A stretch of DNA of 64,000 bases from Limisphaerales bacterium (GTDB taxonomy: Bacteria > Verrucomicrobiota > Verrucomicrobiia > Limisphaerales > Palsa-1400). Numbering within the stretch: the first letter of the stretch is position 1; every line of letters begins with the position of its first letter. Both the position numbers and the translations under genes were made by a program. The notes beneath the pieces were generated by a model, which had not been told where the DNA came from, did not search any database, and saw only the letters and a program-made list of their open reading frames with translations. Location of the stretch: NCBI GenBank assembly GCA_052139695.1, contig JBKQWF010000019.1, positions 24,570 through 88,569 of the forward strand, given 5' to 3'. Below, one piece after another: positions 26,464 to 35,230 of the stretch.

Positions 26464-26820
26464 ATGAAAGTCGAAATTATGAAAAACATTGTGGAACTGA
26501 CCGAAGAAGGTTTCGAAACGGAAGTCATCCAAGCTGCCATTCCGGTGGTCGTAGATTTTTACGCGCCGTGGTGTGGCCCGTGCAAGATGCTCGCGCCCGT
26601 GCTGGAGCAGTTGGCCGGGGAGTTTGCGGGGCGATTGAAGTTCGCCAAGGCAAATGTGGATGAGGCGCCGGAGCTAGCCGAGAGGTTCAAGGTTTCCGGG
26701 GTGCCAACGCTCGTGCTGTTCCACGGCGGCAAGGCTGTGGATCAGGTGGTGGGACTTACCGGACTGCGCCAGCTCAAGGCGTGGTTGGAGAAGGCGGCGA
26801 GCGCGCCGGTCACTGTTTAG
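26464..26820 (+). CDS. trxA: Thioredoxin
   Basis: VVDFYAPWCGPCK, GVPTL. Confidence 0.95.
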   Translation: MKVEIMKNIVELTEEGFETEVIQAAIPVVVDFYAPWCGPCKMLAPVLEQLAGEFAGRLKFAKANVDEAPELAERFKVSGVPTLVLFHGGKAVDQVVGLTGLRQLKAWLEKAASAPVTV

Positions 26821-26834
26821 GCACGCGACCTGGC

Positions 26835-27002
26835 ATGATTCCGCGCATTATCATTGGAGTTATCGTTGGGGGTGGGCTTGGCTTTGGCTGGTATAAGCTG
26901 GTGGGTTGCTCCACCGGCACTTGCCCGCTGACCAGCCATCCCGTCATCACCACGATTTTCGGCGCCGTATTTGGCGCCCTGCTGGCCAGCAGTTTTCACT
27001 AA
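26835..27002 (+). CDS. DUF6132-like small membrane protein, 55 aa
   Basis: MIPRIIIGVIVGGGLGFGWYKLVGCSTGTCPLTSHP (G-C-x-x-G-x-C-P). Confidence 0.85.
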   Translation: MIPRIIIGVIVGGGLGFGWYKLVGCSTGTCPLTSHPVITTIFGAVFGALLASSFH

Positions 27003-27021
27003 ATCCCCATCCCTCAAACAA

Positions 27022-27255
27022 ATGAAAATACACCTTCTTATCCGCCGGTTCGCGGGCGTCTTCATCCTCGGCAGTCTTCTGCTCGCGCGCTATCACAGCC
27101 CATACTGGCTTTGGTTTACCGCGTTCGTTGGCTTCAACTTGCTCCAATCTTCTTTCACCAATTTTTGTCCGCTGGAAATCATTCTCACGAAACTCGGCGT
27201 GGGCTGCTCCTGCCGCGGGAACCAAAAACCCGCTGTCCTATGCAGCCCCAAATGA
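27022..27255 (+). CDS. DUF2892/YgaP-like membrane protein
   Basis: RRFAG...WLWFTAFVGFNLLQSSFTNFCP. Confidence 0.88.
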   Translation: MKIHLLIRRFAGVFILGSLLLARYHSPYWLWFTAFVGFNLLQSSFTNFCPLEIILTKLGVGCSCRGNQKPAVLCSPK

Positions 27256-32600: not shown

Positions 32601-32918
32601 GGCATCGTCGTGCGCAATTCCATCATCCTGGTGGATTTCATCGAGCAGCGGCTGGCGGAAGGAATGCCGCTGGCCGACGCCGTAGTGGATGCGGGAGCAG
32701 TTCGTTTCCGTCCCATGCTGCTAACCGCCTTGGCAGTCGTTGTAGGTGCCAGCGTCATTTTGGCGGACCCCATATTTCAGGGGCTTGCCATTTCCCTGAT
32801 GGCGGGTGAGATCGCCTCGCTCCTCATCAGTCGGATGGCGGTGCCGGTGCTTTACTTTATGGCCTACAAGCGTAAGGCGGAAATAGGCGCGGTTTTGCAA
32901 GCGTCGCGACTTCCTTGA
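29607..32918 (+). CDS. RND efflux permease (AcrB/CzcA superfamily)
   Basis: 1103 aa; [47 protein letters not shown]. Confidence 0.96.
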
Positions 32919-32967
32919 ATTGTCCGGTCAATCAGCGCAGAATTCCCAGCGTCGGTTCGACTCCGTC

Positions 32968-34179
32968 ATGGAAAATCTTAAAATTGCTCGGTTGAGCCGC
33001 CGCGATTTCGTGCGCGCGGCCGGTGTTGTTGGCGCGTCGGTTCTAGCGTCTCCGTTCACGCCACCGGTCGCCGGCGAGTCTCCAGTCCCGGTTGAAAAAC
33101 TCGTCAGGTTTCCCGAAAAACTGGAGCTAATACTGAGGACCGACCGTCCGCCGCAATTGGAGACTCCCTTGCGTTACTTTCGCGAGGATCTCACTCCCAA
33201 CGAAGCCTTTTACGTCCGCTGGCATTTGGAGGGCATTCCAACCTCCGTCAACACGAGGGAATTTCGCCTGCAAATCTCCGGCCACGTCGAGAAACCGGTA
33301 GCGTTGTCGTTGGCCGATTTGCGGAGCCAGTTCGAGGCCGTGTCTCTGGTCGCCGTCAACCAATGCTCAGGCAATTCCAGGAGCTTCTTTGCGCCGCGCG
33401 TGCCGGGCGGCCAATGGAAAAATGGTGCGATGGGAAACGCCCGTTGGACAGGGGTGGCGTTGCGGGACTTGCTCGATCGCGCTGGTGTCAAAACGGGAGC
33501 CATCGAGGTCAGCTTCGGCGGGCTGGATCGCCCAGCGCTGTCCGCGACTCCGAAGTTTGTCAAAGCGCTGTCGATCGACCACGCCAAAGATGGCGAGGTC
33601 ATGGTGGCGTACGAAATGAATGGGACCGAATTGCCGATACTGAACGGGTTTCCGCTTCGCCTGGTGGTGCCGGGGTGGTACGCAACCTATTGGGTCAAGG
33701 CGCTCAACGAAATCCAGGTGCTGCCCGAGAAGTTTCACGGTTTTTGGATGGAGAAAGCTTATCGTGTCCCCGCTTCCCCTGACGGCAATGAATCTTCCGG
33801 ACATCTCTCTACGGAGACCACGCCGATCAGCCGGATGACCCTTCGTTCCCTTTTTGTTCGTCCGGAACCAGGGGAGCGATTGCCGGCCAAAGCGCCCTTT
33901 GACGTTCAGGGCATCGCCTTTGACAGCGGCAGCGGCATCCAGCGCGTCGAGGTGTCCGTGGATGGCGGCGCAAATTGGCAAATGGCTCAATTGGATCCTG
34001 ATTTGGGGAAATACTCATGGCGGCGCTGGCGGCTCAATTGGGCGCCACCGGCAACCGGGAAGTATTCGTTGAAAGTGAGGGCTTTTAACAATGCCGCTCA
34101 GCAACAAACCGGCAGCCTATGGAATCGTGGCGGTTACATGCGAAATGTCATTGAGCAAACCGAAGTGGAGGTCTTCTGA
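32968..34179 (+). CDS. Tat-exported molybdopterin oxidoreductase, sulfite dehydrogenase SorA-like
   Basis: SRRDFV twin-arginine signal; FYVRWH, Mo-ligand QCSGNSR, NGFPLRLVVPGWY-x-x-x-WVK, dimerisation domain. Confidence 0.9.
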   Translation: MENLKIARLSRRDFVRAAGVVGASVLASPFTPPVAGESPVPVEKLVRFPEKLELILRTDRPPQLETPLRYFREDLTPNEAFYVRWHLEGIPTSVNTREFRLQISGHVEKPVALSLADLRSQFEAVSLVAVNQCSGNSRSFFAPRVPGGQWKNGAMGNARWTGVALRDLLDRAGVKTGAIEVSFGGLDRPALSATPKFVKALSIDHAKDGEVMVAYEMNGTELPILNGFPLRLVVPGWYATYWVKALNEIQVLPEKFHGFWMEKAYRVPASPDGNESSGHLSTETTPISRMTLRSLFVRPEPGERLPAKAPFDVQGIAFDSGSGIQRVEVSVDGGANWQMAQLDPDLGKYSWRRWRLNWAPPATGKYSLKVRAFNNAAQQQTGSLWNRGGYMRNVIEQTEVEVF

Positions 34180-34180
34180 T

Positions 34181-35230
34181 ATGGCCGCGTGGAAACTGCC
34201 ATTCTCTTATGCAGCGGTCGTTTGGTTTGCGGCTTCTGGTTTTGTCGCGTCCGCCGCAAACAACGCGCCCGACCCTGCCGCGAGTGCCGCGCCCGAAACC
34301 CGCTCCATTACCTTGCCGCATTTTGAGCCGGATTTGCCCAGCGCCCCCGGGCGCGACGAGTTTATGATGGTTTGCGCGAGTTGCCATTCTCCGCGGTACG
34401 TCACGATGCAACCGCCTTTTTCGGAAGGCAAATGGACCGAGGAGGTGGACAAGATGTCCAAGAACTACGGAGCGCAAATGGACGCGGACCAGCGCCAGGC
34501 GATCGTGGGATACCTGGTTGCCATCAACAGCCCAACAACGGTCGCCGCATCACCCGCCGATGACGACGAAGACGGTTCGTCCACAAAACCCAAACTGGCG
34601 CGCTACGTCGAAACGGCTCCGCGTCTAAGGTTTCCCGCTGACCCGGTCGAGGCGCGGGAAGAAGTAAAACACGGTGCTGATTTATTCGCGCAAGATTGCG
34701 CCGGGTGCCACGGGGCTGCTGGTCGCGGCGACGGATTTATCAGCCCGGTCCTGTTCCGTAAAGCCGAAAACCTGGCCGCCTCGCGGTACTCCGAAAAACT
34801 CGTCAGCCGGATTCTCTGGAATGGAAAGCGCGGGACCTCCATGCCGTCGTGGCGCGGTTTGCCCGCAACGGACTTGGCGGCAGTGGTGAAGTTCGTCGAA
34901 ACGTTGCACCCCCGCAACGAGCCTGACCATATCCCCGCCGAGACCATCCAACACGGCAAACAACTGTTCCTGCACAATTGCGCCCCATGTCATGGCGAGG
35001 CTGCGGATGGCAACGGCGTGAACGCGGCGATGCTCCTTCCGCCGCCCGCCAATTTCAAACTGAAGCAGCCTGACTTGAATTACATTTTGCTGGTCTTGCA
35101 GGATGGGGTTCCCGGCACGCCCATGCCATCCTGGCGCGACCAACTTTCCAAGGCAGACCGGCAAAAAGTCGCAGCCTATGTCCGCTCGCTTTTCAATGAC
35201 GGCGAGGACGTTGGTGCTGGTGCAAAGTAG
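34181..35230 (+). CDS. Tri-heme c-type cytochrome with SorB-like N-terminal domain
   Basis: CASCH...QP...W-x-x-EVDKM-x-x-x-YGA (SorB-like), plus CAGCH and CAPCH domains each with G-x-x-MPSW. Confidence 0.88.
   Translation: MAAWKLPFSYAAVVWFAASGFVASAANNAPDPAASAAPETRSITLPHFEPDLPSAPGRDEFMMVCASCHSPRYVTMQPPFSEGKWTEEVDKMSKNYGAQMDADQRQAIVGYLVAINSPTTVAASPADDDEDGSSTKPKLARYVETAPRLRFPADPVEAREEVKHGADLFAQDCAGCHGAAGRGDGFISPVLFRKAENLAASRYSEKLVSRILWNGKRGTSMPSWRGLPATDLAAVVKFVETLHPRNEPDHIPAETIQHGKQLFLHNCAPCHGEAADGNGVNAAMLLPPPANFKLKQPDLNYILLVLQDGVPGTPMPSWRDQLSKADRQKVAAYVRSLFNDGEDVGAGAK

Follow-up and report, generated by a model that had tools for sequence, protein, structure and literature searches.

Here we describe an eight-gene block at positions 26464-35230 of a 64,000 nt stretch (hereafter the window) of contig JBKQWF010000019.1, which comes from a soil bacterium of the Limisphaerales with a genome assembly of 7.6 Mb and 92% completeness. 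Two modules make up the block: trx-DUF6132-DUF2892-OMF-MFP-RND, which encodes a thioredoxin, two cysteine-bearing mini-proteins and a tripartite pump made up of an outer-membrane factor (OMF), a periplasmic adaptor or membrane fusion protein (MFP) and a resistance-nodulation-division (RND) permease; and sorAB, which encodes a sulfite dehydrogenase and its cytochrome. We consider it probable that the block is a thiol or reactive-sulfur stress efflux operon, controlled by an extracytoplasmic function (ECF) sigma factor and its zinc-binding anti-sigma factor (ZAS), onto which sorAB has been appended in this lineage. The components are each of known kinds; specific to the window are the SorAB extension, with its tri-haem cytochrome, and a minimal regulon of three promoters. 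The pump module is widespread, and the SorAB attachment is rare but probably not accidental. A first-pass annotation had proposed all eight genes as one candidate sulfur export-and-oxidation system. Its account of the layout (eight co-directional genes on the + strand, their gaps and a convergent next gene) was reproduced in full; the translations contain the cysteine motifs GCSTGTCP and NFCP, the tail GCSC...C and three sites of the form CxxCH, and its family labels agree with Pfam and NCBIfam profile scores.

The promoter of the operon places it in a regulon. In an alignment of the window with eight relatives, TGTAAC and GG(C/T)TC, 15 nt apart, are invariant and stand at the same position upstream of trx. 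When a position weight matrix (PWM), built only from other genomes and without any site of this one, was run over the genome, the operon ranked at the top (32.8 bits), followed by two sites of 27.7 and 26.3 bits, the next best reaching 20.2 bits; weaker sites in this genome (20 bits or less) had no plausible downstream genes. The two second-tier sites lie before trx-cydAB (contig C147), where a gene for a membrane-anchored thioredoxin is followed by cydA and cydB for cytochrome bd oxidase, and between the genes for an ECF sigma factor (C94:54632-55276, Sigma70_r2 and r4_2 domains) and an 81-aa anti-sigma factor (C94:55346-55591, zf-HC2 39.8 bits), whose HMAGCNPC is the HxxxCxxC motif of ZAS proteins. 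Cytochrome bd oxidase tolerates sulfide. The thioredoxin encoded in C147:5735-8696 is anchored at its N-terminus and carries WCEPC. Elsewhere, Trx/DUF6132/DUF2892 triads stand on both sides of cydAB in one relative (L170), and a cydB gene and one for an ICMT-like methyltransferase precede the operon in another (L001).

The relatives extend this pattern. Orthologues of the anti-sigma factor (74-86% identical) turned up in all 10 relatives examined, with the motif a short way before the anti-sigma gene in 11 of 12 loci; in two genomes the RND operon directly follows the sigma/anti-sigma pair. A stricter version of the motif pattern matched 44 times in 10 relatives, against four matches for the reversed control. 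The genes found directly behind the motif encode the anti-sigma factor, thioredoxins, DUF6132 and DUF2892, the last both in pump-linked and in free-standing copies, which argues against DUF2892 being purely a pump subunit; they also encode a CoA-disulfide reductase with a rhodanese domain (CoADR-rhodanese), a YeeE/YedE half, a 1-Cys peroxiredoxin, DsbD, a C_GCAxxG_C_C protein and a type III sulfide:quinone oxidoreductase (SQR; 622 bits, cut-off 525). Because this regulon is dominated in the relatives by sulfide and sulfane-sulfur handling and by thiol repair, we read the operon as one of thiol or reactive-sulfur stress efflux; judged from sequence comparison, motif sharing and regulon content both point to a regulon of that kind. 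The sulfur/thiol theme proposed in the first-pass annotation is upheld in this way for the thioredoxin, mini-protein and RND part of the block. The literature searched yielded no description of this regulon. In Limisphaera sp. VF-2 (L207; genome G572, C4:49551), the type III SQR gene begins 15 nt after the ECF motif.

Several components have published connections to sulfide or sulfane sulfur. Disulfide stress is a consequence of sulfane sulfur, which thioredoxin clears (PMC9163753), and a list of genes associated with sulfane-sulfur repressors includes RND pumps (PMC12423496). The ygaVP operon of E. coli, which codes for the prototype DUF2892 protein, the rhodanese-DUF2892 fusion YgaP, is derepressed by sulfide (PMC9774250). 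Under H2S, Azospira raises the expression of a DUF2892 gene about 10-fold, and sulfide also induces an MFP-SQR-RND operon there (PMC5358917). For DUF6132 we found no relevant description in the literature searched.

The permease matches PF00873 across residues 21-1085, the full length of the 12-TM (transmembrane) RND fold. The Asp-Asp pair of TM4 can be read directly in its translation and follows the HAE1 (AcrB-type) pattern, for which we take the context of AcrB D407/D408 as the reference. None of the named NCBIfam subfamilies MdtB/C, AcrB, OqxB and CusA/CzcA claims it, all scoring far under their cut-offs, and its best match, RND_permease_2, reaches 425 bits against a cut-off of 1250. Among solved RND structures the best score is 210 bits, with about 25% identity. 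These values are consistent with the statement in the first-pass annotation that the subfamily is not known to have a characterised substrate. Assignment as a heavy-metal RND permease (CusA/CzcA) was considered and rejected, the TIGR00914 score being 229 bits against a cut-off of 701 and TM4 being of the DD type. The RND clade, DUF2892, DUF6132 and SorA are each present in one copy in the assembly, and none of the approximately 13 other RND genes exceeds 25% identity to this one. The clade itself is distinct and highly conserved, 53-88% identical between phyla, and was found in 131 of the 251 genomes of an order-level census.

Gene order ties the pump to its mini-proteins. We compared 80 loci anchored on the RND gene (53-84% identity; Verrucomicrobiota, Acidobacteriota, Desulfobulbales, NC10, Planctomycetota and others), and DUF2892 lies within the RND-clade operon in 46 of them, or in 38 of the 56 with adequate flanks. 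Its position varies: Verrucomicrobiota have it ahead of OMF/MFP, whereas in Acidobacteriota it comes next after RND, and a linkage kept despite such rearrangement can be taken as a classical sign of a functional tie. DUF2892-RND fusions were set aside as a reading of the loci in which DUF2892 follows RND, on a view of its placement without a dedicated frame check. The DUF2892 core, AG..FVGxNLxQSxFTxxCP, is common to 44 orthologues, and the Cys-rich tail is lineage-specific; DUF6132 exceeds its gathering score by a narrow margin (26.2 against 23.2 bits), with orthologues 58-81% identical in the same position, and some DUF6132 copies in relatives are preceded by an ECF motif of their own. The order trx-DUF6132-DUF2892-(OMF)-MFP-RND is kept in at least nine verrucomicrobial genomes, including that of the cultured Limisphaera sp. 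VF-2 (L162; there as trx-DUF6132-DUF2892-MFP-RND), and the operon likewise begins with a thioredoxin orthologue (59-73% identity) in L001, L161, L162, L164, L165, L167, L168 and L170. Recurrent neighbours of the clade are ArsR-type regulators, ECF sigma factors with zf-HC2, OsmC and AhpC (both in acidobacterial loci), CoADR-rhodanese and YgaP-like rhodanese-DUF2892 proteins, and in L007 a full rhodanese-DUF2892 protein is encoded inside the RND operon. In L167 a 4-kb insert parts trx-DUF6132 from DUF2892-OMF-MFP-RND, and the latter keeps a second ECF motif (L167:11110).

In the second module, SorA has molybdopterin-binding and dimerisation domains (PF00174, 179 bits; PF03404, 44 bits), aligns with SorA of Starkeya novella (2BLF chain A) at 405 bits over 357 residues, and keeps R55, H57, the Mo ligand C104 and Y236 (S. 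novella numbering, from the alignment to 2BLF). Its score for NF052245, 524.2 bits, is under the equivalog cut-off of 600; because it is far above the scores for SorT (188 bits) and SoxC (166 bits), we assign the protein as a divergent member of the SorA family and not as one of another subfamily. The twin-arginine translocation (TAT) signal has the motif SRRDFV and a TIGR01409 score of 21 bits (cut-off 16.7). The partner cytochrome, of 349 aa, matches the SorB profile NF052246 with residues 40-114, which cover positions 3-78 of the 80 in the profile at 70.8 bits where the cut-off is 93, and continues with two further CcoP-like haem domains. A SorB-type gene follows SorA in 78 of 80 loci anchored on SorA, and SorA and its SorB-type cytochrome form an autonomous, self-contained pair. 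The tri-haem SorB fusion is confined to the 10 closest verrucomicrobial SorA loci, farther relatives having a single-haem SorB; this distribution suggests a conserved electron path from SorA via SorB to a c-type cytochrome, which became fused in one lineage. Several Planctomycetota (L101, L127, L129, L143, L148, L153) have a separate gene, 2.2-2.5 kb downstream of the single-haem SorB, that matches the two C-terminal haem domains.

The neighbourhood of pump and SorAB was surveyed from both anchors. SorA and its cytochrome lie near RND in just one of the 80 RND-anchored loci, that of the closest relative (L001), where the gene for an 812-aa multihaem/PKD protein stands between RND and SorA and the whole multihaem-SorA-tri-haem-cytochrome unit is preceded by a separate copy of the ECF promoter. 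The multihaem protein, encoded at L001:8062-10546 behind that motif, is a secreted cytochrome resembling MtrC/MtrF, with PKD and Big_9 domains, and no homologue of it was detectable in the genome of the window. From the side of SorA, the RND clade or its DUF2892 is found within 8 kb in four loci: L081 (on the same contig as L001), L084, L092 and L102. Other genes separate RND from SorA by 2.8 kb in L001 and by 5.1 kb in L084. L092 and L102, from two genomes outside the order, represent a sporadic, looser linkage: in L092 (Planctomycetota) SorAB is followed by DUF2892-OMF, and in L102 RND-OMF-DUF2892-rhodanese-PF03601 (L102:1-4500) is followed, after 5 kb with toxin-antitoxin-like genes, by SorAB. 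The PF03601 product is YeiH-like, of a membrane protein family annotated as putative sulfate exporters. In L095 SorAB begins 48 nt after an RND gene that belongs to a different clade.

A phylum-wide sample proved too sparse for SorA, which was present in only five of the 300 sampled genomes, all from one family with small genomes, and the order-level census was therefore used instead. Of its 251 genomes, 60 have SorA. Direct same-strand RND-SorA junctions occur in four of the 131 RND-bearing genomes, and these belong to two lineages: the genome of the window, and G036, G471 and G510, which represent one genus (g22) of another family and have gaps of 117-148 nt. In one further genome RND and SorA are 11 kb apart. 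The G036 operon reads DUF2892-MFP-RND-SorA-SorB, without trx or DUF6132; its SorA is only 50% identical to that of the window, a different SorA subtype, and in place of the ECF promoter there is a perfect palindrome, TATATGCGCATATA, together with an ArsR-type regulator on the opposite strand. This 14-nt palindrome occupies L172:4736-4749, between the operon and the regulator gene, and the regulator carries ELCHHVC in alpha5. The ArsR-type regulators beside L002 and L063 also have their cysteines in alpha5 (LCxxVC), and similar regulators flank the RND-clade loci L014 and L063. Identity of the regulators by L002 and L063 with SqrR or BigR was tried and found no support, SqrR (6O8K) and BigR (3PQJ) matching no better than generic ArsR/SmtB.

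The RND-SorA adjacency is rare and has arisen at least twice within the order. Placement on the same strand within 200 nt by chance would be expected about 1e-3 times or fewer across the 28 genomes that have both modules, and chance placement of the junctions is very unlikely. At the junction in the window (32919-32967) no terminator hairpin was found, and one weak promoter-like match overlaps the start of SorA; an ECF motif upstream of SorA is absent, the best PWM score within 600 nt being 1.3 bits, and a sigma-70 promoter and terminator scan gave counts near those of shuffled controls. Transcription from RND probably reads through into sorAB. The first-pass annotation had named co-occurrence of the RND clade with DUF6132, DUF2892 and SorAB as a check. 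The linkage with DUF2892 is borne out, and the coupling to SorAB is supported only in part, its adjacency being nearly as rare as that annotation had itself said would speak against coupling; in favour of the coupling are the tight junctions in two separate lineages, the linkage in L092 and L102, and the ECF copy in L001. At the level of titles and abstracts, the literature offered no description of an RND-SorAB operon.

Some observations weigh against our reading, and several of them would suit a neutral accident, in which an independent SorAB pair for sulfite detoxification or respiration, as in organosulfonate-degrading heterotrophs, landed by a stress efflux operon, with read-through being incidental. 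SorA and SorB keep together while their flanks vary: in eight of the 10 closest SorA loci the flanks are unrelated, and those SorAB pairs stand alone without an ECF motif. The two modules are not enriched for one another, both occurring in 28 genomes of the order against 31 expected if independent; intervening genes in L001 and L084, the single RND-anchored case among 80 and the lack of an ECF motif before SorA in the window fit the same account. No RNA run was found to hold this organism, and the one metatranscriptome with related sequence gave only short fragments from relatives (90-95% identical), none of them across 32919-32967; since two genomes of the same genus (G001, G002) have neither the RND clade nor SorA, the whole block is accessory in the genus. 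An accident is nonetheless rather unlikely in our estimation, given that tight junctions formed in two lineages with different SorA subtypes and regulators, that the SorAB unit of L001 has its own copy of the regulon promoter, and that L102 places SorAB 5 kb from RND-TolC-DUF2892-rhodanese-PF03601.

A further set of points concerns the nature of the stress. ZAS/ECF regulons with thioredoxins also respond to general disulfide or electrophile stress, and the operon could be part of a general thiol-oxidative module of the SigR-RsrA type, with a pump that clears electrophiles, quinones or oxidised thiol conjugates and no sulfur species, and with SorAB unrelated. A soluble ZAS anti-sigma together with thioredoxins typifies the disulfide-stress regulons of ECF12 type; the regulon of the relatives also contains peroxiredoxin, DsbD and C_GCAxxG_C_C, acidobacterial loci have OsmC and AhpC nearby, and the motif of the pump is HAE1-type (amphiphile), all of which is in line with such a module. 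Neither type III SQR, CoADR-rhodanese nor YeeE was detectable in this genome, so the sulfur reading rests largely on the relatives. In these, however, SQR, CoADR-rhodanese, YeeE/YedE and SorAB stand behind the same promoter, the sulfide-tolerant cytochrome bd is co-regulated, and DUF2892 has its ties to sulfide in E. coli and Azospira; a purely general module seems to us possible, at a probability well short of even. Resistance to metals or metalloids (arsenite, thioarsenicals, mercury, copper), with the mini-proteins binding and the RND pump exporting them, would account for the ArsR-family regulators that flank at least eight RND-clade loci and for arsenic genes beside some of them, namely ArsD/ArsA upstream in L003 and, in L167 (5002-6443), an ArsR regulator with a canonical CVC and an ArsP-type permease divergent from trx-DUF6132; CxxxxC and Cys-rich tails could bind soft metals. 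We regard it as highly unlikely, because TM4 is AcrB-type without CzcA/CusA signatures, HMA, CusF or MerP-type genes are absent from the operon, the promoter in the window is of the ECF/ZAS kind and not one for a metal sensor, and those ArsR regulators that were compared show no special closeness to a given metal sensor. A more specific version of our own reading would make DUF2892 and DUF6132 the cysteine working parts of an export line for sulfane sulfur (polysulfide or persulfide), their membrane-proximal cysteines being loaded and then reset by thioredoxin while the RND pump expels the sulfur species past both membranes and periplasmic SorAB clears the accompanying sulfite in some lineages; we think this scheme quite unlikely to hold.

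Under the reading that we favour, a thiol/reactive-sulfur stress efflux operon with sorAB appended, the ECF sigma factor would be held in check by the 81-aa zinc-cysteine anti-sigma factor until a thiol-reactive signal frees it, by analogy with SigR-RsrA. Going by the regulon content of the relatives, the signal would most likely be sulfane sulfur derived from sulfide, or the disulfide stress that results. The freed sigma factor would then fire the TGTAAC-N15-GGCTC promoters of the anti-sigma gene, of the membrane-anchored thioredoxin with cydAB, and of this operon. The cytoplasmic thioredoxin may maintain cysteines in the reduced state, those of both 2-TM mini-proteins among them, and the HAE1-type tripartite pump would expel a stress compound or stress product. 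With sorAB placed behind the pump gene in this lineage and probably transcribed by read-through, periplasmic, TAT-exported SorA is predicted to oxidise sulfite to sulfate, passing electrons via the SorB-type haem and the two extra haems to the respiratory chain. L001 would represent a variant in which sorAB was added behind its own promoter copy, as against the direct juxtaposition here. What we infer is which signal induces the operon, that sorAB is co-transcribed, what the mini-proteins do and what the pump carries; gene content, motif conservation, regulon membership, the intact active site of SorA and an adjacency both rare and recurrent were observed.

Features of the operon block in the window, with positions counted from the first nucleotide of the stretch
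Feature	Position	Strand	Remarks
ECF-type promoter motif TGTAAC-N15-GGCTC (TGTAACCTTTCCGACGTTCACGGCTC)	26422..26447	+	16 nt between motif end and trx ATG
Thioredoxin (trx), cytoplasmic, WCGPC, without signal peptide	26464..26820	+	PF00085 110 bits; TIGR01068 113.6 bits (cut-off 96.8)
DUF6132 mini-protein, 55 aa, GCSTGTCP between two hydrophobic segments	26835..27002	+	PF19628 26.2 bits (cut-off 23.2)
DUF2892/YgaP-like two-TM mini-protein, 77 aa, NFCP and Cys-rich tail	27022..27255	+	PF11127 YgaP-like_TM 40.5 bits (cut-off 25.3)
TolC-like outer-membrane factor (OMF), signal peptide	27252..28565	+	OEP PF02321 198 bits
Periplasmic adaptor (MFP) lipoprotein, lipobox LAGC	28567..29607	+	RND_mfp TIGR01730 218 bits (cut-off 94.9)
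RND permease, HAE1-type TM4 motif	29607..32918	+	ACR_tran PF00873 506 bits
RND-SorA junction, 49 nt	32919..32967		no terminator-like hairpin, no ECF motif
SorA-family molybdenum sulfite dehydrogenase, TAT signal	32968..34179	+	NF052245 524 bits
Tri-haem cytochrome c, Sec-exported, SorB-like domain and two CcoP-like haem domains	34181..35230	+	NF052246 70.8 bits; PF13442 twice

The intergenic gaps from trx to the cytochrome gene, re-derived from the sequence, are 14, 19, -4, 1, -1, 49 and 1 nt, the negative value of -4 reflecting an ATGA in which the OMF start overlaps the stop codon of DUF2892. Because the promoter motif ends so close to the first ATG of trx, the start may be a second ATG at 26479 (MKNIVELTEE...). 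The flanks are unrelated to the operon: a disrupted arylsulfotransferase lies upstream, and downstream are a convergent gene for an N_methyl-domain protein (35320-36156), a 3-keto-disaccharide hydrolase and others, with no regulator among the flanking genes. The arylsulfotransferase-like gene (24953-26388) is broken into the overlapping open reading frames 24953-26218 and 26071-26388, with four stop codons across the span and weak ASST matches.

RND pumps have been studied almost only as exporters of drugs or metals. Here a clade that is single-copy and present in about half of the order's genomes occurs together with Cys mini-proteins and with a putative thiol-switch sigma factor that otherwise targets genes of sulfide detoxification, which gives an uncharacterised family of pumps, as well as DUF2892 and DUF6132, a concrete candidate role in physiology. 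The SorAB attachment in turn shows a route by which a periplasmic sulfite oxidase may be recruited into such a regulon. The lineage of this metagenome-assembled genome and the genus g22 offer the setting for probing whether what the pump exports is connected with sulfite, and the cultured Limisphaera sp. VF-2, with the operon and an SQR gene behind the same promoter, would be a practical test organism. If the sulfane-sulfur export line were true, it would constitute an envelope-spanning detoxification machine under a thiol-switch sigma factor and provide the first physiological substrate to be assigned to a phylum-spanning RND clade.

Several known systems come close to parts of this one. Azospira suillum PS has in Dsui_3440-3443 (an unknown protein, RND, SQR and MFP) a combination of an RND pump with a sulfur-oxidising enzyme that is induced during H2S oxidation (PMC5358917), although deleting these genes left the H2S oxidation rate unchanged (PMC5358917); the enzyme there is SQR and not SorAB, and the likeness is one of gene content. 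The ygaVP operon of E. coli (an SqrR/BigR-type repressor with YgaP) shares the two-TM DUF2892 domain and has a sulfide-responsive regulator, whereas here DUF2892 lacks the rhodanese domain, is regulated by an ECF/ZAS pair and has an RND pump for its partner. AcrAB-TolC and MexAB-OprM have the same tripartite OMF-MFP-RND architecture, the Asp-Asp pair in TM4 and a small accessory membrane protein (AcrZ); the mini-proteins co-encoded with the pump here, DUF2892 and DUF6132, are, by contrast, two-TM, Cys-bearing and unrelated to AcrZ, and a role for them as pump subunits is putative. The SorAB of Starkeya novella (2BLF) agrees in its catalytic residues, TAT signal and the SorB-like c-type cytochrome encoded immediately downstream, and differs in that here the cytochrome is a 349-aa tri-haem fusion, SorA scores 524 against 600 bits, and the genes end a stress efflux operon. 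The closest regulatory parallels are SigR-RsrA of Streptomyces coelicolor and SigH-RshA (ECF12 with ZAS), in which, as here, the gene for a small soluble HxxxCxxC anti-sigma factor stands beside that for the ECF sigma factor, the pair controls its own expression through the promoter motif of its regulon, and thioredoxin genes belong to the core of that regulon; from this analogy, redox sensing by the present anti-sigma factor is putative. What sets the present regulon apart is the promoter TGTAAC-N15-GGCTC and a set of targets that takes in a dedicated RND pump, two small Cys-bearing membrane proteins and cytochrome bd, to which the relatives add SQR, CoADR-rhodanese and YeeE and one lineage adds SorAB.

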